Assembly: GCA_030295235.1 (NCBI GenBank)
Contig: AP026180.1
Location: 124,001-188,000, forward strand
DNA: 64,000 nucleotides
Source of the DNA: Fistulifera solaris
Lineage: Eukaryota
Direction of reading: 5' to 3'
Each line of letters opens with the position of its first letter. Within the stretch, counting starts at the first letter, position 1. The translations under genes were made by a program, and so were the position numbers. The notes under the pieces were generated by a model. It saw only the letters and a program-made list of their open reading frames with translations. It was not told where the DNA came from and ran no database searches. Positions 12,916 to 54,354 of the stretch are shown piece by piece.

Positions 12916-13019
12916 TTTTCATCATTTTCGTTTTTCGCATTCACCTTGCTCTAATTTTTTTATTCCGTAGGTACCAGTATATCATTCTTCTTCGTCGGCA
13001 ATCTTCTCTAGAGCCTACA

Positions 13020-14068: not shown

Positions 14069-14074
14069 ACGAGA

Positions 14075-20288: not shown

Positions 20289-20621
20289 CAGACCATTGTT
20301 TGAGAGAGTTGTTGTGACGGGTTTTTAATTGTGCCCCATAAAATCTGTTGAAGTGGTGTTTTCACATCTCCATAAAATCTGAGTGTGTTGTTGTTACGTG
20401 CTTCGTCGTGGGTCGTGGGTCGTGGCTCTTAGGTACCAGGTATCTTTGTTTAAAACGTCCTCTCACCTTTGCTCTGAACGCGCGATAAGGTTAGGCACTA
20501 CTTTACGTAGTACAGTACCTGGTATTTTTCCCCCGCACGACACAAGCACGACACGACGCGCAAAATCAACAAGCCTGTTTTTCTTCGATCCTTTAGTCAA
20601 ACAACTTTTCAAAGTGAAATC

Positions 20622-27713: not shown

Positions 27714-29293
27714 TTAACCCAGTTGCACACATCCAAGAGCATCGGGAATATCATAGACACCATCGACCGCCCACGGCTGATCGTTAGCTCGATAACGCAC
27801 TGGACGCACCGGATACGGCAATGGGACCGTCCGTGTCTGCGGTATGGTCGTTCCGTACGGTGCCAATTTGGTTTCGTCGGATGAACTTAACCAGACGCCC
27901 AATTCCCAATGACGAATAAACAAGCGTCGACCCGCAGATCGCATTTGCACTTCGCCCCAAGCCGCCTTGCTTAAATTGTGACTCGTCAAGACGAACCATT
28001 CCATCGTGTTGTCCGCACAATCATCGTCCTCATCATTTCTACTCCCATCATTCGACAACTGGTAGTACGTTTTAATGTGCCCCACGTGTTTCCTTCCTTC
28101 ATCTGACCATCGGTGATACAACGGACGCAAAAATGCTTTCGAGACATTGCGGTAGGGTCCCGGCACCGATCCACCGCCCGAATAGCCTTCGTACGAGGTT
28201 CGAATTTGTTCCACCGTCGGATACACCAGTTGCAACTTTTGTGCCAGAGGAACTGGGGAAGAAGAGGGACGTTCGTGTTTGGGACGACTGGCCGATCTTA
28301 CATCCATCGATTGATACAATTCGTTCAAATACTTTTCCGTCAACGATCCCATGGACGAAAACTGGCAAACGACTGGTCCTGTACTAGTTGCTGGTGATTG
28401 TTTTGTATATCTAGCACATCGCTGTCGAAGCAATTGTTGGATACGCAAGTGACCTTGCAATGCACGATTCGGATGTTCTGAATCGCTCACACGATGATAC
28501 CCCGGTGTCGAGGGTACCAACGCTACGGACGCTGATGAGAAATCATACTGCCGTAACCATTGTATAAGCGAACAGGGAGATGTCTGCGTCGATGGTGACC
28601 ATATGCGAGGTCGAGTGTAGTCATATGTATCATAATACGCCACCAAATCATTTTCAAAGTCGGAGGGTGACGGTGAACACTCTGTATTTTTGAGAGGAAA
28701 ATCCTGAATACAAGCACCTTGTATCTTACGATGAATGTCCAGTTCGAGCAAATTTGCCGTATGAATAATAAGACGGAGTTTCTCTTGCTGTGTTGTCTCT
28801 TCTCGATAACCGAATACAATGATTTTCGAATGATGCACCCCGTAGGGAAATCCGGAAAGGCAAAGGATTGTGAAGACTTCGCGGTGGATCACTGGGTCGT
28901 AACAAACGTGCATCGACAAATGTCGCCTGTTTCCATTGCATCAAATATTCTGGATTCGTTTCGTGTCCATAAAACAAAGTAATTTGTGGAATCGTGAGCA
29001 ATTCGGGAATTTCGTGCAACAAGAATTCAAAATCAATCATGTAATTGCAAATAATCATGGAATGGATCGTCAACGACGATGTTGCCGTGTCGTATCCGAG
29101 CATTTCTCGAAAGGATCGATCATTGGGACTTCGTTCGCGATCTCGAGTTGCGAACAAGTAAATCGGAGCTGGCGAAGAATTCGGCTTTGTTCGTTTCTCA
29201 TCCGACGACAACAACAACTCGGCAGGGGGGTCGTTTGCGATCGGAAAGATTCTCGATGCCTGTATCTGACGGAGCAGGATCCATATGATCCAT
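27714..29293 (-). CDS. TDP1: Tyrosyl-DNA phosphodiesterase 1
   Basis: ICNYMIDFEFL, PYGVHHSK, IIHTANL, VALVPSTPG, VCQFSSMGSL, HIKTY, LTSHNLSKAAWG, IRHWELGV, VPLPY. Two frameshifts (~29228, ~28845). Confidence 0.92.
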
Positions 29294-29316
29294 TTGTTGG
29301 GTCTAAAGTACACCGA

Positions 29317-31738
29317 GTCAACGTTTCCTTGCGCACCGTATGCACTACATATCGGGAAGCATTAATCGCCATCGATACGAAAACAAAACGTTGATGCAAT
29401 GAAAAATGCAATGCTTCGAATGTCTACGTAATATTTCACGTAGCTCTCGTAAGGAAATTTATCGACAGAGGGGGTACCCGGAGATTGTGTAATTTCGATC
29501 ACATCATTATTCGCGTCTTTTGGACACCATTGTCAAAAAGACTTGGACACCATTGTCAACAAGACTTTGTCCAACATCGCTTATGCGATCCATGAAACGG
29601 CATTCGACGTTGATTTGACTGTGAAACTTGAAATAATACAAACATTTAGCTCTGTCAGTGTCTACGCGCATTGTACGTAGCCGCCGTAGGAAATTTATCT
29701 CTGCAGGGGTACCCGGATATTGTGTCTTTCGCCATCATCCAATTGTTGCATTTACAGTGCACAGATGTCAACGTTTCCTTGCGCACCGTATGCACTACAT
29801 ATCGGGAAGCATTAATCGCCATCGATACGAAAACAAAACGTTGATGCAATGGAAAATGCAACGTTTCGAATGTCTACGTAATATTTTACGTAGCTCTCGT
29901 AAGGAAATTTATCGACAGAGGGGGTACCCGGAGATTGTGTAATTTCGATCACATCATTATTCGCGTCTTTTGGACACCATTGTCAACAAGACTTTGTCCA
30001 ACATCGCTTATGCGATCCATTAAACGGCATTCGACGTTGATTTGACTGTGAAACTTGAAACAATACAAACATTTAGCTCTGTCAGTGTCTACGCGCATTG
30101 TACGTAGCCGCCGTAGGAAATTTATCTCTGCAGGGTGCTTGTCGGAAGTCTGTCCGTAACATACTATACAGTTTACGCTTATATAGTAATTATTTCAACG
30201 GAAACATTTGTACTCTACTCAATTGTACAACATTTCCCGATAAATTCCGATACACGTTTTATGCTACGAGCTTAAATGCCGTTTGTCTCTAAGTAATTTT
30301 TTGTCATTATAGAGAGAAATTTTCTCTCTATGAGAGAAATTCTCTCTGTAGAGAGAAATAGGGAGAAAATTTCTCTTTAAGGGAGAAAATTTCTCTCTAA
30401 GGGGAGAAATCGAGAGAAAATCTCTCTCTAAGAGAGAAATTTTCTCACTTCAGCGAGAAATTTTCATTATGGAGTAAGACGATTTCTGTTTAGAGTTTTC
30501 CTCTGTTGAACGAATTTTATGTACTGTACAATGTGGGCGTCGGGCGTCGTTGCGTCGGTGCATTACTTTTCTGCGCTTGACAAGTATCGAAGAGGTTTCT
30601 TTTGCAAAGAGTAATTCATATCAACTCAAAACCTATTATCTAACGCTTTTGATTAATGGCAAGAATGAGAGACCAAAGGATTAAGAGGGAAATCTCTGAA
30701 TGAACTGAGATGCGGCCGTGGCGTGCTGGAAACTCAACAAGCCCGGGAAAACGAAGCAGCCCCAGACCGCTGAAATTTGCCAGACTCTTCAGTCAGCATG
30801 GAAAAGACAAACTGTGTCCAATGAGCCGCGGATCAAATATGTTTTCACAGTAAAAACAAAAGGGAAATTGAAAATGGAACGCACCAAACAGCACGACGCC
30901 GAGCCAAAAATGGCACTCGGCCTGCACACGCGCCATTCGTCTTTCCAAAGCTAAGCCCCATTGTTCCTGTTGACGAGGTCAATTGATGACTAGCTGTCGG
31001 GGACAAATTACATTTTAGTAATTAGAAATGCTTGTCTCGCTGAACCGTCTTTTGTTTTTGCGTTGGTTGTTTTGTGCGATAACGGTTGTTCGTCGTGTGT
31101 TGAGGTCTCTTCATCGTCGATTTTTAACCTTAATTACACAAAGACGTGAACGAAAGCATAGAAAAAATATCTCTCTACAGAGAGAACTTTCTCTCTAAAG
31201 AGAGAAATAGGGAGAAATATACTCTTTAAGGGAGAAAATTTCTCTCTAAGAGAGAAATCGAGAGAAAATCTCTCTAAAGAGAGAAATTTTCTCACTTCAG
31301 AGAGAATTTTTCTCTCTGGCAAAAAACACATTACTTGTTTTGCGTTATGAGCGAACATACCGTTTCGGTTGCTTAAGATAATATTTATCGTTGAAACCAA
31401 GTTTCGTTCATAAATATTTAGGAATCGATACGACATCGAAACCGTAGATAATCGGAACCGCTCGGAGTGAGTAATTTCCGTCAAGCTCCCAGGGGTATCC
31501 GGATATTGTGTCTTTCGCCATCATCCAATTGTTGCATTTACAGTGCACAGATGTCAACGTTTCCTTGCGCACCGTATGCACTACATATCGGGAAGCATTA
31601 ATCGCCATCGATACGAAAACAAAACATTGATGCAATGGAAAATGCAATGCTTCGAATGTCTACGTAATATTTCACGTAGCTCTCGTAAGGAAATTTATCG
31701 ACAGAGGGGGTACCCGGAGATTGTGTGATTTCGATCAG
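29317..31738. repeat. Satellite with ~430-bp dimeric unit (two ~214-bp monomers), interrupted by a TIR element
   Basis: Unit start GTCAACGTTTCCTTGCGCACC at 29317, 29767 and 31553. Monomer core GGAAATTTATC...GGGGTACCCGGA near 29452, 29690, 29903, 30116 and 31690. Confidence 0.92.
30134..31489. mobile_element. Non-autonomous TIR element (Harbinger-like, 1,356 bp)
   Basis: TIRs GGTGCTTGTCGGAA / TTCCGTCAAGCTCC (12/14 match). TSD CAG (30131-30133, 31490-31492). The empty site CTCTG-CAG-GGGTAC is visible at ~29700. Internal AGAGAAA(T)TTTCTCTCT blocks at ~30310-30460 and ~31165-31320. Confidence 0.85.
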
Positions 31739-35462: not shown

Positions 35463-36575
35463 CAGAATTGGCATGGTATACGTACGTACGTATAATTCGT
35501 CACTTAAATAGTAAGAGTAGAAGGAATTGAAAATATCGGTATAACATCATTATACTCTATAACTTAGGTTAGAGCTTGTTTAGAGTTAGAAAGAGCACGA
35601 GAATTGAGACAATAAGCCTGCAGACCCTAGATGACAGATATATTGTGAAAAAATACATTCTGATGAATGCTTTCCTAGTTTTTCGTTAATCACTTTGCCT
35701 CGAGCCTCAAGCAAAGAGATTTAAGTCCTCAAGCTATCGTTCGTCTTTCAAGGAAAACCGACAACATTCGGGACTGAAAACAGTTGAGTCGTTCGTCGGA
35801 AAAAAAGTAATATACTATCTGCTTCATACTGAGCAATATCTTCTTACGGAGGAGTTTTTTGTAAAGCCGATAACGCTGCATCCCCACGTCATGTCAAAAT
35901 CAACAGCGCTGTAACAATTTAGTTCGATCTACTAAGAAATGTCTTGTCAGAATAGCTCCCGCCTCGTCAACTTGCTTTCGTTATGTGTCTTTGCTGCTTT
36001 GAAGTGTAAACCGTGCGACGGACGGTCGTTCCACGAACTTGGGATTACCACTACGATTCTATACACTTTGACACGACACACCCGATATTACTCTCGATTA
36101 TGAAGTAGTCTGGTCTGGGGGGAGAACGTGTCACACTCGTGAATGACGTAAACATTCGGGCGCGCCAAGTTACTACTTAGAGGACCATAAAAATAGCTAA
36201 GCGCGATTGGTGTACTGTTGGAGTATCACTGCTCAACTCCTAACGTACCCAACGGATCAATTTCGTCGGCCCTTTTCTGTACAAAACGAGGTGCACATGA
36301 AAGGGGGGAAAACTCGTCTCTTCGGCAAACGCCAAATCATCGAATCTGAATGCTGTTGTTGTTGTAGAATAATACCCTTTTACGCTTCGAGTCATTCATT
36401 TATTAATAATTGAATCAACAATAAACAAGTTGCGGCAATTCTATTAGTAGCCGCAACGTTGATTGAGACAAATTCGTACAACATCGAGCTCTCGCAAACG
36501 ATCCTCGGAGTGAAGCCTTGCTTCTCGTTCATTGTAACCTATCATTCTTTGTTTCTCTATCAAACGAACTATAAT

Positions 36576-39500
36576 ATGACAATCCGAAGGAGCTTATTCG
36601 CTCTCTTGGGCATGACTTGCTTGTCGTACGGCTTTATTACGCAAGATGGCAATGGATTCAAGGTGACGAGCGATGTGACCGAAACGTAAGTGACTTTCTG
36701 ATGAATCCAGTTCTTTTGACATAAACGCACTCATTTCGTATTTTTATCGTAATAGAATGAACTTGGCACTCGATATAAAAGCCATGCGTCTCGCGGGAAA
36801 TGATTTTGCGGCCAAAATGGACATTTACGTCAACGGAACGAACGGGTCGGACTTGACCTTACAAATATTGAGCAAGGGCGCTTCGCGACGATGGCCCGAC
36901 AGTCCTTTTACAATATCTATCGCCACGAATTCACGGTACTGGGACAAAAACAAGAACACGATACGTTGGGAGATTTTGATGGTGCGCCCGCGGAAGAATA
37001 TGCCGATCGATTGGTCCTCGATTTGTTTGAATTGAAAGTCGAACACATTGAAGCGGAAGCCACGGTGATTTTGCACGTCATGATGGCGTACCTTAGCGAA
37101 CTCTTTGATATGGTACAAACGTGTTATGCCGTGGCGGATGGTACATCCTCCAATATCAACGATGATACCAACAAAATGCTCCTACTCCTGGATCAAGCGG
37201 CCGCTCTTTATGTCGGAGCCGAACAAACACGCGGTGAATCGACGGGGTTTCTCTTGTACAATTTAGCGCAAGTCACGGGAGCATTCTTTGGACAGGATAC
37301 CGATGGCGTGGAAGTCAAAATCAATCGATTGGTCATTGAACTCTTGCACAGTTTGCAATCCAAAATTAGTAGCGGTACTTGCGCTAGTATGGAAGGATAC
37401 GTTGTCATTCGTGAAGAAGTCAAACTCTTGGTCAAATACACCAATACGATTCTGGTACAAATGATGCTACATCACATTCAGGAAGATACCGAAACTAAGG
37501 CGGATTTTGTCGAATTATATGCCTTGGCGCTCATGCCGCAAATCGCCATTTGCGATGACGCAGCGCATGACATCTTACTCAACTCGGTCGTCGGAGAAGG
37601 TCTCAACGATTCGAATCAAGCCACTGTGATCTCGACGCTGCAAAGTGTGTACGACTGTCTCAATATTAATTGTGAATTGGTGGGTGATTATCAAGGAGAT
37701 CGCCTCTCGGCATGTAGCGACACGGTAACGTCCTTTCCTGCATTGGTGTCGTATCAACCGACCAAGGACGTACGCAGCAAATCATACATCGATCGAGACA
37801 TTCGGCAAATGAGTATATTCATGGCTTACGGAGACTTCAAGACAGCGTACGATTGGTACCGATTTGGCTGGAACAGCAATGTCAAGTTAAGAGACTTTGC
37901 ATTGAACGCAAAAGGCGATTCTGTCGATCTGTACATGGAATATTTTACCGACGAACGATACTATCCCGACAACTTGCTGAGAAATGCTTTCCAACAGAGT
38001 GCCCCCTTTCAAATGGCATCCGATAAACAACGCGAAAGTTTGATCAAAGGTACCATTAGTGGCATACTCATGTTTTGGGCTGTCGTCGATAGTCTGAATC
38101 AAGCGGGACAGAACTGTGACGCCGGCAACGTCGACGCCGCTACCGAATACTGGGACACCGCTGCGGCATATTTCGTGGGATCTGCGGAAGGACAAGCACA
38201 AATGGGTGAAGATGGAGGCCAGCTTCTGTTTGGCGTGGCCAAAGACATGTGTACGGGTTTTGAAACCTGTGAACCCGATATTGGTTCTACTTTAAATGCT
38301 GCTGTGATGGCATCCTTCAAGACCGGCCAGTCCATGCTGACGGAAGGTACCACCAACTGCTTCGGAGTAAAAGATCTTTCCGGAGACATGGTTATTGAAA
38401 TTACGAAAATCTTAGTCCAAGCAACACTCTGGCACGCAGCACGAGTATCCGAAGGTTTGCAAATGGCACAAGGGTCCCTTTTGGCGTATTCTCGATCACT
38501 ACTTCCTGGCGTTGAGGCTGCGAACCCTACAGCCGCCGCTACTATTGACAGCAATACCAATTACTTTTTCGAAGCCAGTACAACCACCGACATGCCGGCT
38601 GTAGTGAATGCTTTTTCCCAGTCCTTTAGTCAGATGGAAATAAATTGTGCTGATATCGGGGACATTACGGTCAAAGGACAAAGGGCGGTGTTTGTGTTGG
38701 AGATCAATTCTTATCGACACCAACGATGGCTCCAAATCCGGCCCCAAGTGTTTCCGCTCCACAAACTCCTCCGGCTGAATATCCTGTCGACTCTCCTGTT
38801 GATGACGATTCGCCGACGCGAGCACCTAACTTGCCTGAAAGTCGTGTTCCTATCTACATACCAGATGCGCACGAAGGCGGTCTTGCATGGGGACGCTATA
38901 TATTTTCCGACGAAACGATTGCACAATCTGATTCTCTCTTTACTCTGGATATTCGAGACATGCACGACGCTCCGACTCCCCTGGATGCGCTGCTTGTTTA
39001 CAACCAAACGTCAAGGAACAGCGACGGACTCTCGCTCACTGGCAATTCGTCGATAAGCAGTCTAAAAGAATTCAGCACCGAAGCATCGACATTCATGTCG
39101 CAAGATCCCATGTACAATTTCTACAGGATTGCACTTTATGAGGATGAAGCGTTTGATGACATCGTCAATGCCGCGGGATGGCCATTTGGTAATGCCGTAG
39201 TCGAGCTGGCTCTGGCTCCAAAGAACGGAAACGACCCTGTTTTAGCCTCTAAGGCAGCAGTGGTAATGAACATATGGATGATGATTGTGCATCGGCTGTA
39301 TGAATCCGCTCGACAGTGCAGAGCGAACTCTTGGTCGCCTAAGTGGATTGACTCCGCTGTCGCTCTCTGGATTGGACAGCAGCAAGGAGAAGGAAAATAC
39401 AACAGTGGATGGAGTATGTACAGAGTCGCGCAAGATGCTGCCATGTTTTACGGGAATAGCGAAGGTGAAGCAATATCAAACGGAGAAGTGCTCACGCTTC

Positions 39501-42500
39501 TAATCGCACTACAACAGGAAGGCACAAAATGTGACGGATCGTCTGAATCATACCTTTCCTACAAGTTTTTGGTCGACGAAACGATACGCGTGATGTCCAC
39601 CCCTCTCTTACAGAATCTTCTGTATCACATGAGCGAAGACAACTTTGAATATGTCGAGCTGTATGCGTTAGCCTTCATTCCGCAAGCGCTATCTTGTAAC
39701 GAGGGTTGGTATTTCAACTTAAGAGATTCGTTGTACGAGAAATTCGAAAGAAACACAAGAATCAATGAACCTTTCATCGAGATCTTTTCTGACGTTTTGA
39801 TATGCCTGAAAATGGAATGCTCAGACCTGGGTAACATATCCACCGCGGGCGCTTTTCTGAAGGACCTTGTTACTGGCCTATGTGGCCGTCTGGAATCCGC
39901 TGCAACAGATAAAGTATTGGCTGGATATGCAATCACAAGTTCTTATGGAGAGCTGGAACGCATCGATCTCGATATTCATCAGATTGAGCTTTTCATGCGG
40001 ACATCCTCCTATGACTTAGCCAGCGACGTTTACGTCAATGGCCGCAACATGATAATCACAGGAGCCCGTGATCTGCACTCACTTAAGGACTTTACAGATT
40101 CCATTGCATCGATGAATACCGGGGGTCTCTTTCAAAAGTTCAAGTCGTACTCAAACGCTGACTCGGACAGCTTCATTACGGATCAAGCACTATCATTACT
40201 TGATGGAGGTGATGGCACTCGTTATGACGGTGCATCGCGGCGGCAACTTTCTGAAGCAATGCTCCGACATTCCCAGACAACTGTCGCTCTATTATTGTTT
40301 GTCGGCAAAATGTATGAAGCTGTAGGAAAATGTGAAGAAGCGGGTGGACAGCAGCAAGTGGACGAAGCTGCGGCCTTCTTCATAGGATCTATGGAAGGTA
40401 GACGTACGGGCGGTGACATTACCAAGCATGGCAAGCTGATGTATGCTCTGGCAAATGAGATGTGCTCTTCCTTTGAAGAATGTACCAATAATGAAGAGGC
40501 CAAAAGCAACGAATTCATTCTATTTGCCTTGAATGATTTAAAACAAGCTATCACAGAAGGCAAATGCGAACAGGCAAAGTCCAAATTGGAAGAAAGCATC
40601 ATTCCGAATTTGTATATCTCTACTATTCAAGGAACGTTGCTTTTGCTGAGATCAACTCTGAGTTGCCACCACAAACAAACGATTCTACTTTAGCTGCTGG
40701 CGATATGCTCGCAAAATCAATCTTGCCAGTGGTCGCAAATATTTCATCCAGCAGTGCTGCTATCATAAGTGAAAATATGGAATTCAGTCTTAGTAACAAG
40801 CCTGTCAAGGATGGCGCCGAGGCTGTCTTCGATGCATTCGCATCTGTCTTGAATTCCACTGGTATTGGGTGTTCTCAAATCGGTCGCTTGGGCGTTTACT
40901 CAACTTGCAGTGTCGGCGATGAAGGCGAACAGCTCGATCCCGAAACGCCAACAAATCTCGGCAAAGGTCTTTACGTGACGACAACGTATGTCCAAGACAG
41001 AGCGGAGATCGGTCTTGATGTGAAAGATATGCTAGACTTGTTGAATACCGGTGATCGCGAGGATCAGGCACTCCTTGTTTATCAGGAAGGAAGACATTCG
41101 GATGTTTATGACAGCGAGGGCAGAGAGTGGACCTTCGGTCGCTAGGCGGATTTTCTTTAAGTGCTAACACGTCGAACCCACTTTACACAATGGCGGTGTA
41201 CGCGCTTCGAGGTCCAAATGGCATGTATCGTGACAGAGATGCATGGCTCTATGCGGATACTGTTGTTAGAGAATCGTTATCAAAGTCCACAATTGCTGCT
41301 GAAGCAGCTGTCGCGCTGAATCTTTGGATGGAGTTAGCAAGAGAGCTTTACAGCACCTTTACGTTGTGCAAAGAGAGCAAAGTGACCGATGAAGATGGGA
41401 TCCATTCCATTGACGAAGCGGTGGCCTATTGGATCGGTGATGGACAAATAGCTGGTGAATCCCAGAAGGGTCATCTTCTTTACGCACTTGCCGAAAAAAT
41501 GGCAGAAAATTTTGGACTAGACGAAGCTGGACAATCTAGGACCAACGAAAACATCTTGCGCCTCTTTCATGAAGCGAGAATTGGAAGTTGCCTCACCCGG
41601 AGCTTGCAAGGATAGAGCTGCTATTCACCGTGTTCGGCATGTGGTAAACAAGATTTTGTCACAAATGATCGTATTAAACATTCAAGCTTTGATCCATTAT
41701 CTCCGAGTCGACGACCGTGACCGAGTATGGGTGTATGCACATGGTGTCGTTCCATTGATTGCTGGTTGTAGTCCGGCTGCATTCGAGTATCTTCGAAAAG
41801 AACTTCTTGAAGATCAATACATCGCCAGTGATGTTGAAAGTATCATACAGCGCATCTATTCAGTTTTCCCATGTTTTGGACTTCAATGCGATGACATCGG
41901 TAAACATTCAACAGAGACGACCTCGTCTTGCACCGACCCGCCAGCACGAACGCCGTTAGCAGGATACAAGCCATACAGTGATGTTTCTGAAGAATCAAAA
42001 ATAGACTTAGATATTTTGGAAATGGGCATTATGATGGAAATGGAAGCTTACGAAGCTGCCGAAGATCTATACTTTTACGGAAAGCATGTTTCTTCAGCGT
42101 CTGATGGAGGTCAGACCGCGTTGAGTCTGCAGTCTCTAGCTACCCTCTCCGACCGATCAAAGGCTCCAGAACTTGAAGCGTTCAAAGTATATTTTGGCGG
42201 AGACGAGAAATATGCCGATTCCATTATTGCTTCGCTGTTCTCTAGTGACAGCAAGTACGACAAGACCGAGCGTCGTGTCATTGCCACCGGAGTCTCCCAG
42301 TACCTGGTTATGTATGCTGCTATTTTGGATTCCATGTACGAATCAATTGAAAATGCGAGTCTTCTGAAACAAGCGATGTAGATGCCGCAATCCACTCGTG
42401 GGATAAAGCTGCAGCTTACATCACGGGTCACCTTGAGGGCTACGATGAAGACGGATCTTCGGAGGGGCTTTTCTTGTGGGGTTTGGCCTCACAAAGCTGC

Positions 42501-43235
42501 GAAGAATTTGGCACGTGCTCCACCGAAACTCCTGGCTCGGCTATCGTTAATGATAAAATATCCACGATTCTTTACTCAGGCCGCGGCGCGATTCTTGGTG
42601 GCAATTGCGCGGAGCTGCGCAAAGCGAGATCTCAACTTATTCCTCTACTCCAGACACCTCTTATTCAGGCATCGCTCAGCTCTCTTACCAAGCTTAATAC
42701 GAGAAACGGTGCTTCGGACTCTTTACTTCACGCTGAAGCCCATGTGCGTTCATTGGCGATCCTTCCCTCGATAGCTGAGAAGGACCGGGCAAGTGCTGAT
42801 ATAATCAGCAAGAACATGGGCATTGACAACACGGCTTTGGTTGACGGCGTCCCTGTCGTAGCATCCGCTTTCGCCGCTTCGATTAGCAAACTCGGTATTG
42901 ATTGCAACAATGTTGGACAATCGAAAACAATTGACGCGTGCACAGGCGATGTAAAAGGAATGAGTACTGGTGCAATCATTGGGATTGTGCTGGCACTTAT
43001 CGTTCCGATTATTGCAGGATGGTTCATCATTCGACGCAGAGGAAGGAAAACGTCTGAAGAGCTTACGGCGTTTGTGCCTCCAAAAGGCGAGTTCAACCAC
43101 GACAGCAACGCGGATTCGGAACCGGAGCAGCCTCGGTCAGACAGCAATGGCAGTAAAGGAAATAGCGAGAGCGCGAACTACACTATTTCCGACGACGACG
43201 ATGGCGTCAGCACTACCGAACCCGATATCGTTTGA
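36576..43235 (+). CDS. Giant type-I membrane protein with six FEA1-like (low-iron-inducible periplasmic protein) repeats
   Basis: Signal peptide MTIRRSLFALLGMTCLSYG and intron 36686-36755. Six D.A.A.(Y/F/W).G....G..L(Y/F/W).(L/V)A motifs. C-terminal TM IIGIVLALIVPIIAGWFII-RRRGRK. The frame is broken by about 6 single-base shifts. Confidence 0.8.
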
Positions 43236-43459: not shown

Positions 43460-44284
43460 TTATAATTTCATGTTGAGAAGAAAGTCTGGGAATGAAACAT
43501 CTATCTTTTCGCTGTCCCTCAGAGTGCTCTGGGGTCTCGGTAGCGTGTCACATGATCCATTGTTTGTCAAACCGACGACAATATTAGAGCAATCGAAGCT
43601 CACACCGCCGTTCTCACAAAACTCACACGAGTTACACGGGTAATCAGCCAGACTGACTTCACACCCGCATAAACTTGCGCTTTCAGCGAAGGTACTAGTC
43701 GCATTCGACTCGTTCACGGGCTCGCTGACAGGTTCTTCCTCCCCCAAGCATACGTCAAATCCAAAATTCAATGTTCCAACATTGATCGGACCGATGCTTA
43801 TATCCGCGAAAAAGACATTTTTTGTCAAATATTGATCGTCAAAGTCCACAATCACTTCGAAACCAGGAGTAGTGCATATTCTTCGCGTTAATGGGTCACA
43901 TAATTCGTCCGTGTAGATTTCAACTTTAACCTGTCGCTCGATCAATAGAGGGATCAGCAACATGGTTTCGCAATTGATGGATCCTCTGAACTGGTCCTCC
44001 AGCAGTTTGCATGGTCGTAACAAATCAAACCACCTCGGCAATAAAGAAAGCTGGCCGCCATCTGACTCATCACCGTTTGAATCACCACCATCGTCAACAG
44101 CATCGCCACTGTCTTTCTTGGTGCTTTTCTTTTGAGCCGACGCGTTGGGTGAATTTCGAACAATATGGTTGAGCTTCCTTGCTGCACCTCTCACTCTGGA
44201 TGCCGACTTTTCGTCAACGACTCCTCTGGCTTCACCAGCGAGCGCCCATAAAAGAGCCAGTAGAAAAGACAGTTTGTTTATCAT
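43460..44284 (-). CDS. Secreted Cys-rich hypothetical protein
   Basis: Signal peptide MINKLSFLLALLWALAGEARG; C-terminal CGCEVSLADYPCNSCEFCENGGVSFDCSN. Confidence 0.75.
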   Translation of the reverse strand: MINKLSFLLALLWALAGEARGVVDEKSASRVRGAARKLNHIVRNSPNASAQKKSTKKDSGDAVDDGGDSNGDESDGGQLSLLPRWFDLLRPCKLLEDQFRGSINCETMLLIPLLIERQVKVEIYTDELCDPLTRRICTTPGFEVIVDFDDQYLTKNVFFADISIGPINVGTLNFGFDVCLGEEEPVSEPVNESNATSTFAESASLCGCEVSLADYPCNSCEFCENGGVSFDCSNIVVGLTNNGSCDTLPRPQSTLRDSEKIDVSFPDFLLNMKL

Positions 44285-45241
44285 TGTCAAAAGTCGCTTT
44301 TTATAGATCGATTAACGAATATGTGAGGATCGTGCACGAATTTCTGTCGTTGTCGTGTCGAGAAAAATCGTCTCGTGTTTCATTCTTTGCGGATCTTGTG
44401 AGCGCATCGGTTGGGCTTCTTTACGAGAGTCATTTTCTGGTTAGCTACAGTAGTAACACTCGCTTCGAAAAGACTCACAAGATTTTATATGATGGTTTAT
44501 GTAGATTACTTTTTGCGATCAGTACCTCAATGCTATAGTGCGAGGTGCGAGTACCAGATAGAGGTAGTCGGTCATAAATGAAAAATCCTTTACAAGACAA
44601 CTTTGATACGTGCAAGAAAAAAAGATCGCCGGTCACTTTTTATCACGTTTCTCTCCAAAGACGAGATCCATCATCCCATCATCGTTCACCATTCCCTTTT
44701 CATGAATTCTAATACTGAAGAGCCTCTCAGACAATGATGTGACAGTGTTAAAGAGACAACGAATGACAAATTTGCACAACCAGCCAGTGCCGACTCCTCG
44801 TTTCTCATGCTGATAGATCGATCGATATTGATCGACTGCCTGGTATGAATGTCAACCCGACTGAAGTCGTTATGAGGCAACGCCGTCGCGGTAATGGGTC
44901 AACATGGATAGTATTTGTTTAGCGTCAAAGGAATTAATAAACTTGTTGAGAGCCGAAGCGATCTTCGTCACAAATCTTCATTGAAAAGTAGACAATTCAT
45001 GCAACGGCAATTAAAAGAATTTGAATGCTTATTTCATAAGTAAACCGTGTAGACATAGGTAAAGCAGCTTTCACGACAGAGCCACTCATGAAGGATTTAC
45101 TCAATGATTGAGACTCGATTTGATTTCTACAAATTAAAACTACAGGTACGAAGAACTACCTTTCGCTCACTATAGCCTTTAACTCTAGATCAAATATTTT
45201 ACGCAAGTTTAAATATTCATTTTCTAATACAAAATTGAAAT

Positions 45242-46018
45242 CTAATGAGAAATGTACCCCTGGTTGGCGTACTCCTTCATGGCAACCCCGACCGGTTTGA
45301 AAAAGAAGGGAGTCTCCTCGACGACACCCAACTTGCTCACAAATTCTTGGAACGCAAAGGCCGTGATGGCAATCATGGCGAGACGTCCATTCTTGATTTC
45401 GTTGAGCTGCAGACGGCGTTGACCTTCCGGGTCCTTGGGGTACAATCCCAAAGGATCGAATCCCAAATTTCCAGGGAAGTAATCGGCTTTCTTGGCTTGC
45501 GAAAAGCCGTAAGCTTCAATGGCGGCGGCCGCCACCAAGCATACGACCCAATACACGGGGCTGATCTTTCCCAGACCACCGTTGAGAACCGAGGGGGCAC
45601 GGTCTGTGGCGTCGACGATCGACGGAGCCCCGAAAGTAGAGGCGAACTTTGTGTTGAAAAGTTCGGACATGGGCCATCCAGCCGCGGCGAGCATGGCCAA
45701 ACGAGCGTGCTTGATTTCGGCTTCACGATATTTCATGAGCGAAGCGTTATCCTTGGCGAATCCGAAGGGATCGAAGCCAACATCACCGGCGAGTGTTCCA
45801 TCCAAAGCGACAGGACGAGTCATGAAAGGAAGAGACTCCGACATTTTGGACGGAGCAGGGATCGTAGGCATGCTTTCTTCTTGCGCGACGACGGGCATCT
45901 CACCTTCAACAGAGTCGGCCATGGCCAAACTCGTTCGCTTCAAGATAAGCGACGATTGAGGAGCGAATGCCGAGGCACTGACAAGGCAAGTGAGAGTAAT
46001 GGCGGCAGAAAACTTCAT
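45242..46018 (-). CDS. Light-harvesting fucoxanthin-chlorophyll a/c protein, Lhcz/Lhcr-type
   Basis: ASAFAP presequence; GFDPFG, REAEIKHARLAMLAAAGWP, DRAPSVLNGGL, EIKNGRLAM. Confidence 0.95.
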   Translation of the reverse strand: MKFSAAITLTCLVSASAFAPQSSLILKRTSLAMADSVEGEMPVVAQEESMPTIPAPSKMSESLPFMTRPVALDGTLAGDVGFDPFGFAKDNASLMKYREAEIKHARLAMLAAAGWPMSELFNTKFASTFGAPSIVDATDRAPSVLNGGLGKISPVYWVVCLVAAAAIEAYGFSQAKKADYFPGNLGFDPLGLYPKDPEGQRRLQLNEIKNGRLAMIAITAFAFQEFVSKLGVVEETPFFFKPVGVAMKEYANQGYISH

Positions 46019-47178
46019 GATTCTTGAATGCATTATCGATGAACGTGAATGTGTTGATAAGTGAATTATGAACTGAAAGAGAAATCAGTGGATGGATGAG
46101 AGAGGACGACCAGAGCAGCTGCTGATGTGTTGTGAATTGTGATGTCTTTCGAACACATCATCCGTGAAATGTCAAATCGTCCTCACTACCAGTTTTTATC
46201 TAGTCTAGTGTACTCCGAAAAGGATTCTGGAGCTCCTGCGACACGAAAAAGCGTTCCAATTATAACGCGCTCATCCTTTTTGCCAGGAATGCGTCAGAAA
46301 TTGGAGCTGCTTTGTTGGAAAACGAGATCGTTCGAACGCTTTTTTCTCGTCCGCATCCGGAAAGCGCGGTTTTCGTGACGTGTATTTTTGCCGACTGAGT
46401 CATTCTCAGACACGTCAGCAACTATTCCGACGACCCTCCTAGAAACCCTCCGCCTTGACCTCGACTCGTTTTAGTCCAGTCAACAGTCGAAACGGGAAAT
46501 TAGCCCCCGCTTACAGTAGGGCGAAAATGAAAAAGCTTCCCGCAGGATCTGGAAAGCCTGTCGCAGGCGGCTAGAGTTGTAATGAATGCGAAAAGGATGA
46601 CGAGAGATTATAAGATCGTAATGATGACACATTATCAGATTTTCTGGGGAATTGAATATACCCCTATCCCAGATTTTCTGGAAACGTGAAGATATCCCTA
46701 GTGATCACTGTAGAACAAAGTGTAACTCAACTTATCCAAGACTACATTATTTCTGTCATGAGAGCAGATTTTCTGTGGACGTGAAGAAACCCCAAGCCCA
46801 GATTCCCGGAGATGTGAAAACATCACAAAGCACGCATTATTCGCGTTTCTATGATCGTTGAAGCCTATTCCAAGGAAATCATGATGTTGGCGTGCAATAA
46901 AACGCTGTCGCGATAATGTTTTTAATTTGACAGGAAAAACGATTGGCTACCTGACACTTCCGTTTTCAATCCACAATGGCCATCATGGATCAAATGTACG
47001 CAATCGCAGCGTTCCGATGACCTCAAATATAGTCTAGTGTATATGAACTCTATCATGGCTACGTAACGATGCTAATGGTTCCAATTCTCAGAAATTCTTG
47101 TCTCAGTAACAGTTGCTCACACAGTGCCATTGGTGACTTTTCCTAAAAGCGGTATTTTACAATCCTTTTAGTCTACTC

Positions 47179-47853
47179 CTAATTTGCAAGTTCTCGAATC
47201 GCCGTAACTGCGGGTTGAAAGAAAATTGGCGTCGCTCGTACCACCCCCTGGTCTGTAATGTACTCTTGAAATACAAAGGCTATGATAGCGACCATAGCGA
47301 GCCGACCATTTTGGATTTCAGCCAATTGCATGTACCGCTGACCGGCTTCGTCTCGTGGATACAGACCCAAAGGATCAAATCCCAAGTCACCCGGTAAGGC
47401 ATCTACGGTCTTGATTCTGGATAATCCGTACGATTCAATCCATGACGCCGCGAGTACACAGACGATCCAAAAGAGGGGATTGATTTTGTTGAGAGTGCCA
47501 TTCAGAATAGAAGGAGCACAGCCTGTTTCGTCGATAGTCGGTGAAAGATGAAAATAGTCCGCGATCTTTGGATTCAAAACTTCCGACACGGGCCAGCCTA
47601 CCGCGGCCAGCATGGCCAGTCGAGCGTGTTTAATTTCGGCTTGACGATATTGATAGAGTGCCGGCTTGCTGTTCGAAAATCCCAGAGGATCAAATCCTCT
47701 GTCACCTGGATAGGATCCGTCTAGAACGGAATTGCGGTCCATGGAAGAGAAAGATTGGGTCGACCGCGTCCGTTGCGCGACACGAGCGTTGTGAGGAGCA
47801 AACGCTGCACTTTGAGCGGCGAGGATAAGCGCGATCACTGTCGACAGTTTCAT
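47179..47853 (-). CDS. Light-harvesting protein, diverged tandem paralog (Lhcz/Lhcr-type)
   Basis: SAAFAP, GFDPLG, QAEIKHARLAMLAAVGWP, EIQNGRLAM. Confidence 0.93.
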   Translation of the reverse strand: MKLSTVIALILAAQSAAFAPHNARVAQRTRSTQSFSSMDRNSVLDGSYPGDRGFDPLGFSNSKPALYQYRQAEIKHARLAMLAAVGWPVSEVLNPKIADYFHLSPTIDETGCAPSILNGTLNKINPLFWIVCVLAASWIESYGLSRIKTVDALPGDLGFDPLGLYPRDEAGQRYMQLAEIQNGRLAMVAIIAFVFQEYITDQGVVRATPIFFQPAVTAIRELAN

Positions 47854-48554
47854 TGTTGCTCGAGCTCTAAAAATGAGTTTTGGTGTTTTTCAGAGAACTC
47901 TGCTGATCAATTGTTGCTGTTGAAGTTGTTTTTATGAGACATAGAATTGCTTCGCTTCAACAGTATATTTTACGAACACATTCATGCAATCGAGCCTCTT
48001 GTAAGTTCTCGAACAGCTCCAATCTACGACGTCGTTCGATTCGAACGGAAACGCGCTCTCCTCATTTCTTCCGAATTTCATTGGGAAAAGGCGAACCTCA
48101 AGTCGTCGCGAACACATTCCGATGGTGGTTTTATTCAATGACAAACCGCATCTCACGTGATGCATGAAACATGGAGATCGACGAACGATCTATACGCGAC
48201 GCGGGGTTCACGATGGTGTGTGGCCTATAAACCAACAATAATCTGTATAGTGGTGATTTACTACCGGTAGGAGACATCTTTTTTTTATTTTATACGGAGT
48301 AAAAAAAAAGTAAAACACGAGCTCCGACAGCGAATAACAAAATGGCCTAAGGTACAACGAAGTTCATACAATAGCAGATCCAGAGCCTTAATGGAAAAAG
48401 CAAAGATACTCTTCGTCGTGAAGAACGATCACGGACATCGGAATGCGAAAACCTCGTCGACAAAACCGCCGAGAAACAGCTTCTCTTTCGTCCCTTCTCT
48501 CTTGACATCATTACCTGGTAATTATTACTGTGTTGTTCTTACCGACAACTCATC

Positions 48555-50255
48555 ATGCTGCTCTTGTTAGTGCAGTTCCTACTTCTTGTAGCTACAGGGG
48601 AAGGATATGCTTTGCCGAAAGGCAGGCAATCTCGACGGAATCATTATTTCCGAAAATCGGTGTCACACAAGTTGACATCTTTTCATTCTTGGCTCTCGGC
48701 ATCATCGTCCTCGTCATCATGGGACGACTTTGATTATTTGCAACACTGGTATCCCGTGAGTTGGGCTTGTGATATTAAATTGAACCGACCTACGCAGGTC
48801 AGTCTCTTTGACATTCCGTATGCTGTGGCCATCACAAAAACGAACGATACACTTTCGGTGCTGGCCTATGAAGATCGGTGTCCCCATAGAGGGCCGCTCT
48901 TTCGGAAGGACGCGTCACGGAAACGGGCTATTTGCAATGTGCCTATCACGGTTGGTCCTTCGATCAACAAGGCAAATGTGTTCAAATTCCCCAATCGCCC
49001 GCGAAAAGTAGTCAGTATTCCACCCGTGCGTGTGCCAAGGCTGTTCCAGCCATCCTTCATCAAGGTCTCGTATGGCTCTGGCCCGGTCCTGTGACCAACA
49101 ATGATGTGACGTTGCTTCCCTCACCTCCTTCGGTTCCGGAAATGGACGACCCGGCGTTCAAAGTGACAAGGACGGTGCGGGATTTCCCTTGCATTGATTG
49201 GACTCTGTTGTTGAGCAATATCATGGATCCAGATCATGGAATGTTTGCGCATCAAGCTTCGCCGTTTGATATGTACTCGGCTTCTCCAGAATATCAAATG
49301 CAAGTGGAACAATCTTTTGACAGTGCGGGTTGGCAGATGATAAGCAAAGTTCCAGCGCAAGAGAAATTGCGAAACCGGGATCGTATTCTGCGCGGTCTTA
49401 CCACCAAAGCAATGCCCATGAACATCACTGGTGTGACCACGTTTCATGCTGCCACGCATGTAACGATTTCCCGCCGAAACGAACAAGGAGAGACATCGTT
49501 CGTTACTGCTTTTTGGGTGTGTCCAACGGGTACCGGTCGTAGTCGATTCTTGTCCGCCGCCGTCGGCAAATTGCCGTTTTCACCTCCCCGATGGGTCTTC
49601 CATATTGCATTGAACCGATTTCTAGACCAAGATTCCGTGCTTGTGGCATCACAGCAACCACCCGTTCTATCGGCAGAGGTCAAGTGCCTGGACGAAAACC
49701 AACAGTCGATGCGATCAGACGCCGCCAAAGGGGGAGCCCGCACGGGTTTGTTTGTGTACCAAAGTCCCACTGATCGATCGGTGCGACTAATTGGTAAGTT
49801 TCAACGTTTGTCTTTTTTGTTAATGTCAACGATAATCAGTCTCATTACACATCGAAGATTTCTTTTGGGATGCTACCCTGGCTAAGGCGCCGCGTCGATC
49901 GGAGACGTTACTGGCCATGAAAACGGCTGGGCTGCTAGAATCTATTCCACCTCGAAAAGTCGTCTTAGATAGGAAAGTACAACACCTCGATATTTGTCCT
50001 GATTCACAGAATACGGTGCGCAATTGCGAGTTCATCAAACAAACAAGCTTAGTCGTGACGGCCGCTTGGGTTGTGCGTACATTTTTGAACAAGAACGTAA
50101 ACGCCCGCATGTTCTGGTGGATTCCAGTTCTGTTCTCTGGCGCGGGCTGGTCGGCCGAATGGATTCGAAAGCAGTTTTATTACAACCACTCGGAAGCAAA
50201 CCGTGATAGAGATTTGAAAAGTATTCCAAAGAGAATGTGGCTAGATCCAAAATAA
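48555..50255 (+). CDS. Rieske non-heme iron oxygenase (pheophorbide a oxygenase/Tic55-like)
   Basis: WYPV, DRCPHR...QCAYHGWSF, NIMDPDHGMFAH, HLDICPDSQ. Frameshift ~48890; intron 49794-49857. Confidence 0.88.
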
Positions 50256-50497
50256 ACTTCGGAAGCAATGTACAAAGAAATCTTGTAAAAAGAAATGAAT
50301 AGGAACCAGAGGGAAATAATTTTGTAAATATTGACCACTTGCCTCGAAAGGCTTTCCCCTCAATGGACAATCCCTTATGCGCTTACATATTTAGCGCAAG
50401 GATCACAAACGTAAATCACTCGTTTTGAACATAATGTACAGAAGATAATTAATTACAAAGCTATTGGTACGAAATTGACAATCTTTCAGATCTCTCA

Positions 50498-53400
50498 TCA
50501 GCCTGATAGCATACCTTTCCCTGCAGGCAATTCGACCTCTCCGGCAGTCACAGTGAACAGCGATAATCTTGCCTTCTTTGGAAGTAGAGACGTGCGAATA
50601 CGATGGAGACAAGTCTGATACCCCTAGATACGAAGCACGGACACCACTGCAATTACCATACCGATCGTAGAACTGACTAAGTGTTTCAGCAGCATGATCG
50701 TCATCGTAACCCGCTTGGATTCCACCCCATACCAGGCACCCATCTGTGCGATTCACAGTCCCATGCTCGTAGGTAAAATCCAAAAACCGGTGGATTTGTT
50801 GCGGCGGCGCAAATGCATACACCGCCATAGAGTGAATCATGAGATCTCCCAACCTCCGACGATAGATATGTCCCTGGCGATCAATGAATCTGAGAAACTG
50901 GGCGACATCGGGCCTCGTGAAAAACTCCAGATCAGCCACAAAAAAGTTGTTGTAGATGCCACACATTTCTAAATCGATAGGCCGCTGCGCTTTGAATTCT
51001 GGGTGTCGTTTGGTCCACATCGTCCACATGCGTTGTGTTACCTTCATCTCGTAGGCGCACATTCGAAAGCCGTAAACAAATTGTTGCGTTGACATGTAGT
51101 CGAAAATATCATAGCGAATGGGCGAATGAATGAAGCTGTCCTCATCCAAACGCCATATATAACGATAACGACAGCCCTCCTGCTCGTTTATCTGCGAAAA
51201 GTATTCCCAAATGTCGATGGCGAACCAATGCATCATACGGCGGTACCCTTCGGAAAATAAAGGCCATGCAAACCAATCGGCGGGATTGTCGTTTAAATGA
51301 TGAATAGGACGTGTCCAGTACGATGAGTTTGTCAAGTCTACCAAATGCAAAATGCCCTTCAGTTTTAGTGAATCTTGGATCACGTTCCAATCCATTTCCG
51401 TGAAGTCTCCACTATGGAACACAAAAACATCCGCTGTTCCATCATGTGTGTCAAGGTAGTGCTTCTTGAGAAGCTGCATCGATATTAACAGATTTGAGTA
51501 ACTATCCCGACCTTCATAGCTAGAATGGGTTTTCTGTGCCAAGTAGACTATGGCATTTTGATTTTTACGTATTCCGGGAGTTCGTACAATTGACGTATTT
51601 TTCATGGTTTCGGTAACAAATGTAGACGTTATTCGTTGTTGCGCCTTAAACTCCTGTTGCTCCAGTTCTTTACCGACCAACAGGCTAAATTCCTTAGCAG
51701 CAAGTGCGGGGACAGAGTCTTCTAAAGAAATGCTGGTCATATTCGGATTCCAGTACATTGCCGCTTCCGAAACCGCACTCGCGCCATGCAATAAGTATTG
51801 ACATCTTGCAAGCGCCAAAATATCGACCAACGTTTCCGCGTTCACGCGGTGATGCGAGGCGTAAAAGTGCGGCAGCCATTCCCTACTCCTCCCTTTCAAG
51901 GACCGAACAACTTGATTACCTTGATGCAATAGTTCAAGCGAAGCTGTGACGTTCTCGTTTTCGAGCTGTTTGTTCAGGAAATTCAAAGCAGTTCTAGAAT
52001 CGGTCGCCACATAAACACAATGCCCACCAGCCTCCGCGAAGGCACGAATGTATTCCATATACTTCTCCAATGGGATCTTCTTTCGATATTTCCCTTCTTT
52101 ATCAATATTGCGAATGTGCACTCCGAGACAGAGACGACTATCTCCTGTGAGATCGGGCACACGTTCTACCCGCTGCTGCAAATAGGACAAAGGCCGGAAG
52201 TGGGTCTGCAAAATCGAGTGTGCTCTTTGGCGCTGTTCCGGTAAGGACTCTACGGACCACGAAGTCACTTCATCGTAGTGCCAGGCGCGAATCGACGAAG
52301 GATCGTACAGCTCGAGGCCCGTTACGAGAGACGATCCCATCTGCACTAACGGTAATTGCAAACGACACCTTTCAGACGGGCGGAGCGGTTCAAAATAGCT
52401 GTTCCATATTCCATTTCCTTTTAACACAAGCGTAAAGGTTGTATAGGAGAGTTCCTCAGGAGGCCCGGGATATTGGCTTTCGGCTGTATCCCCTAGAGCC
52501 GTGACAGAAAGACTCGTCAGCACAGTTACTGATTGATTGTCGTCACCATGAAAGTCTGGATCAAAAACCAACCGATTTTCTTCCGGATCCAAATGCACCC
52601 AGGGCAGCAGTTGATGTTCTTCTGCATATCGCAATTGATTCAAAATCGCGGTAAAAAATGACCTACCGAATCCATGTCCACCGGCGTTTTGGATGAGTAA
52701 TATACCTTTATAGTTACTACAGTTGATTGTAGCGTCATCGAAACTTTCGACCTTCTCTTCATCTACTTCCCACCACACATCAGTGCGAACACGAGTCGGG
52801 TAAAGAGAGGACGACTGATTCCGCATTTGCAGCAGAGTTCGAAATTGTGCTACCGTGAGCCGCTCATCGGGATCTTCCAAATCAACACTCACCAACTGTG
52901 AGTTCAGCCACAAGGCGGACTCGGAAACGGCCGACAATCCGTGCAACAAGTAATGACATTGTGACAACGCCTGAATTTCAATCAAAACTTCGGTATTGGT
53001 CTGGTGACGATGATGTTGCGGCATATCAAAGACGGCGGTCGCGTTGGTCGAGCGGAGTGCTTGGAACGTGCGGATGCGGGACGTAATCTGAGACGGCCAG
53101 TCATTTTGTATTTCTTGCAACACCAAATCACTGTCTGTGGCTAGATAAATGGCCCAGTCGTCATTCTTGTTGTACAGAGTATTCTGTTGTTGCGCAAACG
53201 CCAATACATACGGCAAGAATTCCGACGTCTCCAAAACACGACGCCCCGCTGCTTTGTCTGAATGTCGAATGTGCAATCCCAGCAGCGCGGAAGCCGGTGG
53301 GTTGACCAATGCCGCCGCATGTCGAATTGGTGCCCGCAATCGAATGTATTGTTGCACGACACGCGCCGCCGTCGCCCGTTGCGGCGCAATCCACTCGTGA

Positions 53401-54281
53401 AAGGGCATGTACAATTGTGTCACGTAATCGGGTAAATAATGATACCGCCAACACCGCGGTGCATAATCCGTAAATCCGTGCAATCCCGGCGTAATCAAAA
53501 ACAAATCCATCGTAACATAAGTATGACACGACGTGTCCCCCGGAATGTAATCCGAAATGGGTTCAAAGTAATGTTCCCATACTCCAGTTCCCGTCAAATT
53601 GAGTTGATGCATCAGAACCGAATGAGAAGCATCGGGCGGACCGGGCGAAAAGTCTTTCATATGCCCACCCGGTCGACGCACATAAGTAGCATTCCGGGCT
53701 TGCATGGGCGGATTCAAACGTACAGTTTGGTGTTGATTCGCTTGATGCACCAACGGATCGTAGACAATATGACTGACGTTATTGAAATGCACCCACGGCG
53801 TCAAATTGTAATGCTCTGCATAGAGAATTTGACTCACGACGAATTGAAAGAAAATGGTGCCGGCCGCACCACCGATATCTCCCATTTGAATGTGATACAC
53901 GCCTTGCGTGTGTTCGCAGGCTCGATGGGTGGGAGTGGTGCGCTTGGGAATAGTGCGTAACGCTTCTAACGAATTCGGATTGGTGTAGAAGGATTCGTCG
54001 TCGTCGTCCGTGTTGCTGTCCAGAGGATCCTTTCGAGAATGACTGTCATTGTCAATTTTAAATGTTTGTTGTTGCGGTTGCTCTTTCTTGTAGTCGATTT
54101 TCTTGCTTGTGTTATCAGCATCTCTTTCTTTTGTATTCTTGTTGATAAAAGAAGAAGAAGGAGAACGATGAATGGTCGCTTGGTAACCCAAATACAAGTT
54201 CACAAACGCAACTGTGACAATTAACAGCACCAACAGTATCAACGATGGCGATTTCATTCGACGAGCAGCGGATTTCATCAT
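50498..54281 (-). CDS. Type-II membrane multidomain glycosyltransferase: two NodZ/GT23-like fucosyltransferase domains + GT15 (KRE2/MNT1-like) domain
   Basis: N-terminal TM. Twice LG(L/V)HIR..DK / Y(L/V)ATDS / L..CxYLLHG.SAVS. Then YRRMMHWF, YIWRLDEDS, IYNNFFVADLEFF, IYRRRLGDL. The C-terminus is probably frameshifted (likely stop at 50498). Confidence 0.82.
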
Positions 54282-54354
54282 TCGAATCACTCTTGCAACC
54301 TAAACATGCTTTCTCGTTAATTGTTTACAAGAATGTTGTCTATTGAAGCGAAAT

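Follow-up and report, generated by a model that had tools for sequence, protein, structure and literature searches.

Three pairs of Fea1-family domains in one predicted membrane protein of the raphid diatom Fistulifera solaris, and the assembly errors that break up its gene

In a stretch of 64,000 nucleotides from the raphid pennate diatom Fistulifera solaris (GenBank assembly GCA_030295235.1, contig AP026180.1, positions 124,001 to 188,000 of the forward strand; hereafter the window), positions 36576-43235 (+) hold a single intact nuclear gene, which runs from a start codon at 36576 to a stop codon at 43233-43235 and is interrupted in the assembly by six single-base errors. Judged from its sequence, the 2197-residue product is a type I membrane protein composed of a signal peptide, a domain pair A1-B1, a Pro-rich hinge, two further pairs A2-B2 and A3-B3, a transmembrane helix and an acidic tail of 67 residues (Table 1). 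All six domains can be assigned to the Fea1 family (Pfam PF07692), and a role in iron capture is probable. The protein is already on record, as a hypothetical protein that carries a Fea1 label, and multi-Fea1 proteins have been described as a class; what is added here is the gene model, the nature of its frame breaks, the differentiation and history of the A and B domains, a set of candidate ligands, the description of the tail and an all-alpha model of a domain pair.

The gene consists of eight successive open stretches on the plus strand, with the frame changing from one to the next. The original prediction, which had been made from the DNA letters and a list of open reading frames (ORFs), had therefore described the gene as visible only in fragments, while placing its start and stop at 36576 and 43235, exactly as in our gene model, and estimating a protein of about 2,190 residues, close to the 2197 residues of the GenBank protein. 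The cause of the fragmentation is one intron and six single-base insertions or deletions (indels). The intron is needed because stops between positions 36687 and 36693 close both frames, so that no indel can join them; splicing it out connects ...TSDVTET with MNLALDIKAM, as in the GenBank protein, and the product aligns free of gaps with the TTDV..LNLALD block of orthologous proteins. Introns behind every frame change were considered as well and rejected, as the six other junctions are too tight and both the repeats and the GenBank protein run across them.

At each of these six junctions, the translation carries on with a repeat on either side, and this repeat can be aligned with its sisters. 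In a word-index search, the GenBank entry 'hypothetical protein FisN_24Hh058' from Fistulifera solaris (P0151, 2197 residues) was found to be 100% identical to the query piece; it maps on the window as eight exact blocks between 36576 and 43232 and continues without interruption across the six breaks. A script then tested all possible single-base insertions and deletions in the neighbourhood of the breaks against this protein, and exactly one base reconciles each junction: a base is missing at five of the breaks, in four cases from a run of A or T, and the remaining one has an extra G. The first break had alternatively been sought at ~36870-36885, but the GenBank reading and the orthologue consensus LSxxA....P.YNIY place it at ~36906. 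The read-through protein contains no in-frame stops and keeps all conserved residues, including all 36 conserved Cys. The six frame breaks are thus assembly errors, and the stops that they create are not real.

That the breaks are genuine and the locus is a decaying pseudogene is very improbable, even though six frame changes fall within 6.6 kb and an unbroken ORF of 1298 residues at 50403-54299 (-), with Glyco_transf_15 and weak FUT8-like matches, extends over 3.9 kb of the same window, which means that the error density is uneven in the window and weighs against a purely technical cause. Such decay would have to be reconciled with a protein of the same species that crosses every break with exact identity on either side, with changes that are all of one base and in four cases alter the length of an A or T run, and with the intact complement of conserved residues. 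Besides, no fewer than two further genes of the window are interrupted by similar shifts, which places the fault with the assembly and not with the gene. In a Rieske/pheophorbide-a-oxygenase-type gene at 48522-50255 (+), a single-base shift near 48885, at a G run, separates CPHRG from AALSEG, with AALSEGRV...CAYHGW following in the next frame, and a further frame change is possible near 49836-49885. In the tyrosyl-DNA phosphodiesterase (TDP1) gene at 27717-29361 (-; Pfam E 1e-62), a one-base shift near 28850, just before YGVHHSK, looks like another assembly indel. Pyrosequencing and nanopore-type methods miscount the lengths of homopolymers. Fistulifera solaris has been sequenced by pyrosequencing, and a nanopore assembly made with Canu and nanopolish also exists (bioRxiv 10.1101/2021.11.10.468027). 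With about one homopolymer-type indel per kb in the gene and the recurrence elsewhere, fragmented ORFs of this window should not be read as pseudogenes.

It is scarcely credible that the locus comprises several tandem genes, one per Fea1 pair, instead of one long gene. Proteins of 630-870 residues with a single pair and their own signal peptide and anchor do occur in other organisms, and the raw ORF list is fragmented; the stretches between the pairs of the F. solaris protein, however, lack any signal peptide, membrane anchor or stop, the frames overlap and run on, and the sole transmembrane helix lies at the extreme end. Moreover, 57 fetched proteins of 2100-2320 residues align with it over their full length, some of them source-labelled MMETSP or EukProt; full-length relatives with these labels (P0188, 2243 residues; P0178, 2153 residues) were counted towards a single mRNA.

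Membership in the Fea1 family, suggested by the original prediction, was borne out by a Pfam scan, in which the read-through protein scored 48.2 bits for Fea1 at a gathering cutoff of 25 bits. The three other full-length relatives scanned scored 51-53 bits, so that all four full-length proteins pass, and Fea1 was found above the cutoff in 13 of 16 assorted relatives, at E<=1 in 24 of 26 single-pair relatives, and as a precomputed PF07692 annotation on 62 of 65 long relatives. One model of 359 positions corresponds to one domain; in one orthologue, for instance, residues 1736-2068 match model positions 14-338. Against the assignment, the uncorrected window pieces stay just below the cutoff (24.0 and 14.8 bits, in two of eight pieces), and direct Pfam matches in the F. 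solaris pieces fall on B-type domains only and on none of the A type. The A domains were assigned to Fea1 because of their profile homology to the B domains, because Pfam directly matches the A-type domain of single-pair relatives (P0080, residues 31-246; P0092, residues 24-223), and because A2 has Fea1-bearing clusters as its nearest neighbours in the ESM Atlas (score 0.93). The sequence comparisons taken together indicate that all six domains are Fea1 domains. A link to DUF4856 from the ESM Atlas (score 0.87) was kept as a lead only, with zero Pfam support in any scan.

The six domains, each of about 330 residues with exactly six Cys and an isoelectric point (pI) of 4.4-5.0, can be aligned end to end and fall into two alternating types. 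All six core motifs quoted in the original prediction were located in the translation, those of type A at residues 183, 903 and 1591 and those of type B at 504, 1240 and 1921 (the sixth being DKAAAYITG), and its two boundary motifs were found as well: the (L/R)DI-type opening recurs as (L/R)D(I/V) in each domain, and the closing C..(I/V/L)G is present six times out of six, at residues 343, 668, 1059, 1410, 1749 and 2088. Sequence identity amounts to 25-26% among A domains, 25-31% among B domains and 17-24% between the types, with every within-type pair above every between-type pair. Profiles of A and B cut from the 57 fetched proteins without further filtering nevertheless matched each other over 287 columns (hhalign probability 99.9%, E 9.8e-34), which argues for homology of the two types far beyond chance. 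B-type domains are set apart by a second Asp (DxD), the Glu of GSxEG and a CxxFxxC pair, whereas A-type domains have Gln where B has Glu, a Trp and two other Cys.

Searched exhaustively with phmmer, a set of 1.84 billion representative sequences yielded 556 proteins at E<=1e-3, of which 98 reached E<=1e-30; many of these relatives are 2100-2300 residues long and matched in three stretches. Among the 65 long matches of the word-index search, the seven that carry an organism label all derive from raphid pennates (Fistulifera, Seminavis as 'expressed unknown protein', Mayamaea, Cylindrotheca, two Nitzschia and a Bacillariaceae metagenome-assembled genome), and two of these seven, with MMETSP and EukProt source labels, are full-length; Phaeodactylum, Fragilariopsis and Pseudo-nitzschia have no entry among the named matches of this search. 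The relatives also include larger Fea1 proteins (P0004 and P0005 of ~2800 residues, P0028 of 2885 and P0066 of 4250), of which P0066 is matched by the query in 12 stretches and carries eight Pfam Fea1 stretches (185 bits); six domains are therefore not the upper limit of the family.

We were able to trace the history of the pairs with two domain trees. For the first, 16 of the 57 long proteins, hand-picked for speed, supplied 96 domain copies; it separated A from B with a support of 1.0; A1, A2, A3, B1 and B3 each formed a clade (0.97-1.0), while the B2 copies did not form a single one. For the second tree (142 tips), we added 26 single-pair proteins of 630-870 residues, each split into its N and C halves; four of the 30 candidates (P0071, P0088, P0095 and P0110) were left out as their ends look truncated. 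The A/B split again received a support of 1.0, the N halves grouped with A and the C halves with B, and B1 and B2 together came close to a clade (30 of 31 tips, support 0.998). When aligned globally, the single-pair proteins mostly showed little or no identity to the pair-2 query, and the nearly invariant columns of this alignment lie over pair 3. Because of these trees and this alignment, we consider the A-B pair to be the ancestral unit from which all three pairs descend, with pair 3 as the likely original module; the triplication predates the divergence of these diatoms. The idea of a triplicated pair put forward in the original prediction is backed by the trees and equally by confident two-domain models (see below). 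As for their C-termini, many single-pair proteins end in a hydrophobic stretch without a tail, and others have a transmembrane helix plus tail.

AlphaFold2 models were built from unaltered window pieces aligned with whole relatives, which provided 37 of 70 first-aligned relatives for A2-B2 and 35 for A1-B1. The model of A2 with the first two thirds of B2 reached a predicted local distance difference test score (pLDDT) of 92.3 and a predicted template modelling score (pTM) of 0.93, and that of A1 from residue 88 with the whole of B1 reached 92.0 and 0.92, respectively. Because the pTM is high across two domains, the models indicate a fixed, compact arrangement of A and B. Both are almost wholly helical, with only a few isolated bridge residues. 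Foldseek found no match to either model in the PDB at E<=0.001 (best E 0.11 and 0.074, template modelling score <=0.2), and no transferrin was among the PDB matches that it listed; a PDB sequence search gave no match and a PDB profile search a single chance match (E 0.16). The alpha/beta lobe of two subdomains that characterizes the transferrin or periplasmic-binding-protein fold was considered and rejected, because the models are all-alpha and lack a PDB match, and the predicted fold is not that of transferrin. Hence, of the 'triplicated bilobed' receptor proposed originally, the three pairs stand, whereas 'bilobed' survives only as an analogy with transferrin. In agreement with this, ISIP2a is described as differing from true transferrins in sequence and predicted structure (PMC10372677). 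All-alpha models without a solved relative make the Fea1 fold a worthwhile structural target.

The leader of the F. solaris protein covers residues 1 to ~20, and orthologues with complete N-termini have a hydrophobic leader too, ahead of their conserved TTDV..LNLALD block. Together with the six Cys per domain, the single C-terminal transmembrane helix and the basic stop-transfer sequence behind it, this leader suggests that the protein would sit at the cell surface. Both the hinge after pair 1 and the helix with a cytosolic tail at the end of the protein had been predicted and were found as such: the former is strongly enriched in Pro, and the latter begins with the one hydrophobic stretch near the C-terminus, followed by RRRGRK and the acidic tail. 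Plastid targeting through a Phe after the likely signal cleavage site, between SYG and F, was rejected since K, I or S stands at this place in the orthologues whose N-termini are complete. Among the 57 aligned proteins of 2100-2320 residues, four have no tail, while NPxF occurs in 17, PxF in 39, a GExNH-like motif in 46 and two terminal aliphatic residues ([IVL][IVL]) in 47. The F. solaris tail (...LTAFVPPKGEFNH...) has Phe at the PxF position, followed by GEFNH and the terminal ...DIV.

The closest known layout is that of Ot-Fea1 from Ostreococcus tauri (ostta18g01980), described with a signal peptide, two Fea1 domains and a C-terminal transmembrane segment, that is, one A-B module plus anchor, which resembles pair 3 of the F. 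solaris protein and the single-pair relatives (PMC4855317). Ot-Fea1 is strongly induced by iron deficiency and was found iron-loaded (PMC4855317). Compared by description only, it differs in having one pair (in a gene of 2490 nt) instead of three, an unrelated N-terminal region of its own and REXXE-type motifs, which are not enriched in the F. solaris protein. The diatom surface protein ISIP2a (phytotransferrin, Phatr3_J54465) shares PF07692 and the type I anchoring, binds Fe(III) and is endocytosed; again by description, it is much shorter (gene at 1,000,053-1,001,833), with a C-terminal Fea1 domain (PMC4855317). Its carbonate dependence and endocytosis are demonstrated. ISIP2b, a Cys-rich paralogue of pTF.CatCh1 and not a Fea1 protein, was rejected as a relative, and the word-index homology searches gave no match named ISIP2a or FEA1, the later ones returning only unnamed or fragmentary proteins. 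FEA1 and FEA2 of Chlamydomonas, the founders of Pfam Fea1, belong to the same domain family but are single-domain, secreted proteins without anchor, tail or A/B differentiation.

The original prediction had called FEA1-family proteins usually far smaller, which is incomplete: Fea1 domains have multiplied several times independently, to even numbers of 2-10 (Lelandais et al. 2016, PMC4855317). Six domains in pairs obey this rule, which can be explained by the duplicating unit being the A-B pair. In the available portion of that article, the A/B types, the present diatom group, the tail and the fold are not described, and we found no description of a six-domain diatom Fea1 group in the open-access articles searched. 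The multi-domain transferrins of Dunaliella are a functional analogy, being algal surface iron-binding proteins enlarged by module repetition (PMC10372677), but their fold is unrelated.

Over 336 domain copies, positions conserved at 90-100% and present in all six F. solaris domains include D, Y, D, N, Q, P, four Cys and several Gly. Those bearing oxygen are the Asp of the opening LDI, a Tyr ~18 residues further on, the Asp of DxAxA, an Asn and a Gln. As the domains belong to Fea1 and retain these residues throughout, we infer that each of them would bind Fe(III) through conserved oxygen ligands, to which B-type domains may add the second Asp of DxD and a Glu where A-type domains have Gln. We therefore lean towards a function in iron capture, in which the protein would display up to six metal sites on a stalk, concentrate scarce iron at the membrane and hand it to uptake, and might, once loaded, be internalised through its conserved tail. 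Relatives fit such a function: ferric iron is bound by both ISIP2a and Ot-Fea1, which have a part in uptake (PMC7676907, PMC4855317), and Fea1-domain proteins of Bigelowiella fall 8.7- and 10.8-fold 24 h after iron resupply (PMC7883536).

Several results weigh against it. Lelandais et al. stressed R/K-E/D-x-x-E (REXXE) motifs for Ot-Fea1 and ISIP2a (PMC4855317). Such motifs are not enriched in the F. solaris protein, which has two of them, a number reached or exceeded in 659 of 1000 shuffled sequences. The NPxF motif present in 17 of the 57 aligned proteins is missing from its tail. The CACGTG box is part of diatom iron-responsive promoters, and none of the 11 matches in the window falls within the 1 kb upstream of the gene (35512-36575), although this is a weak indication. 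Finally, the open-access articles searched contain no report of iron binding, localisation or iron regulation for the FisN_24Hh058 protein.

As the promoter box and an enrichment of REXXE motifs are lacking, one may think of a Fea1-fold surface protein with a non-iron job, which would bind some other metal or ligand, serve as a sensor, or form a raphid-specific surface or adhesion component (these diatoms being gliding and mostly benthic), with the tail linking it to intracellular machinery. The restriction of all seven organism-labelled long relatives to raphid pennates and the conservation of the tail, in both its GExNH-like motif and its aliphatic end, would suit such a role, and even that of Chlamydomonas FEA1 is debated (PMC4855317). 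But all characterised family members have a connection with iron, the oxygen-ligand residues are kept in all six domains, and seven labelled matches from a word-limited search make a weak taxon pattern; we regard a non-iron job as possible, though rather doubtful. Within the iron-capture reading that we favour, a more far-reaching and tentative proposal is that the hexa-Fea1 proteins constitute a distinct, conserved receptor class of raphid pennates ('poly-phytotransferrin'), in which an A-B module anchored as in Ot-Fea1 grew to three by additions on its N-terminal side, pairs 1 and 2 being sisters, with a full ligand set in six domains and a tail (PxF...GExNH...hydrophobic C-terminus) that couples the receptor to trafficking.

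Table 1. Parts of the hexa-Fea1 gene of F. solaris and the frame breaks within it (window positions; residues refer to the 2197-residue protein unless pieces are named)
Feature	Position	Strand	Basis or remark
Start codon and signal-peptide-like N-terminus MTIRRSLFALLGMTCLSYG	36576-36635	+	first ATG of the open frame; basic, then hydrophobic stretch
Domain A1, residues 36-366	36681-37742	+	domain alignment, window map; contains intron 1 and break 1
Intron 1 (only intron)	36686-36755	+	70 nt, GTAAGT...AATAG, GT..AG
Break 1	~36906	+	base missing, T4 for T5
Domain B1, residues 367-692	37743-38719	+	Pfam Fea1 stretch on piece residues 311-466; contains break 2
Break 2	~38680	+	base missing, A3 for A4
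Pro-rich hinge, residues 693-757	38720-38914	+	21.5% Pro against 3.0% in the whole protein
Domain A2, residues 758-1092	38915-39919	+	domain alignment, window map, model
Domain B2, residues 1093-1434	39920-40944	+	Pfam Fea1 24.0 bits on piece residues 417-621; contains break 3
Break 3	~40641	+	base missing, T4 for T5
Domain A3, residues 1440-1772	40960-41958	+	domain alignment, window map; contains breaks 4 and 5
Break 4	~41122	+	base missing, A for AA
Break 5	41578	+	one extra G
Domain B3, residues 1773-2105	41959-42956	+	best Pfam Fea1 stretch of the protein, residues 1769-2009; contains break 6
Break 6	~42350	+	base missing, A4 for A5
Predicted transmembrane helix TGAIIGIVLALIVPIIAGWFII, about residues 2109-2130	42966-43031	+	only Kyte-Doolittle stretch above threshold; RRRGRK next
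Predicted cytosolic tail, residues 2131-2197, and stop	43032-43235	+	acidic, pI 4.2, ends ...EPDIV; alignment of 57 proteins

The window carries genes for fucoxanthin/chlorophyll-binding proteins, a fatty-acid desaturase and other nuclear genes, as expected of a photosynthetic stramenopile. Next to the Fea1 gene, 225 bp downstream, lies a convergent ORF of 276 residues (43460-44311, -) with a signal-peptide-like start and a Cys-rich sequence (CGCE, CNSCEFCENGG), for which no Pfam family was found; it is followed by two neighbouring chlorophyll a/b-binding (FCP/LHC-type) genes at 45245-46084 (-) and 47182-47889 (-). A tandem array at 4694-15885 (+) comprises five BTB/POZ ORFs (at 4694, 6367, 11020, 12681 and 14941), several of which are succeeded by overlapping ORFs in another frame, so that introns or further indels are possible. 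A DDE_Tnp_4 (PIF/Harbinger-type) transposase ORF of 469 residues with two overlapping upstream ORFs in other frames was found at 18144-20324 (-), and an ORF at 59132-60043 (-) combines RNase H / RVT_3 with a Cauli_VI N-terminal domain, so that it may represent either an RNase H1-type gene or what is left of a retroelement.

Iron limits the growth of diatoms over much of the ocean, and Fea1 proteins such as ISIP2a and Ot-Fea1 are known non-reductive algal receptors of Fe(III). Provided that it binds iron, the F. solaris protein would be a natural system in which to learn how many sites a receptor uses and whether A and B domains differ in affinity. Should the poly-phytotransferrin proposal be true, the A-type (Q) and B-type (DxD, E) sites would form a natural pair of differing affinities within one module, and the class would have arisen independently of the multi-domain transferrins of Dunaliella, as a parallel to them with an unrelated fold.

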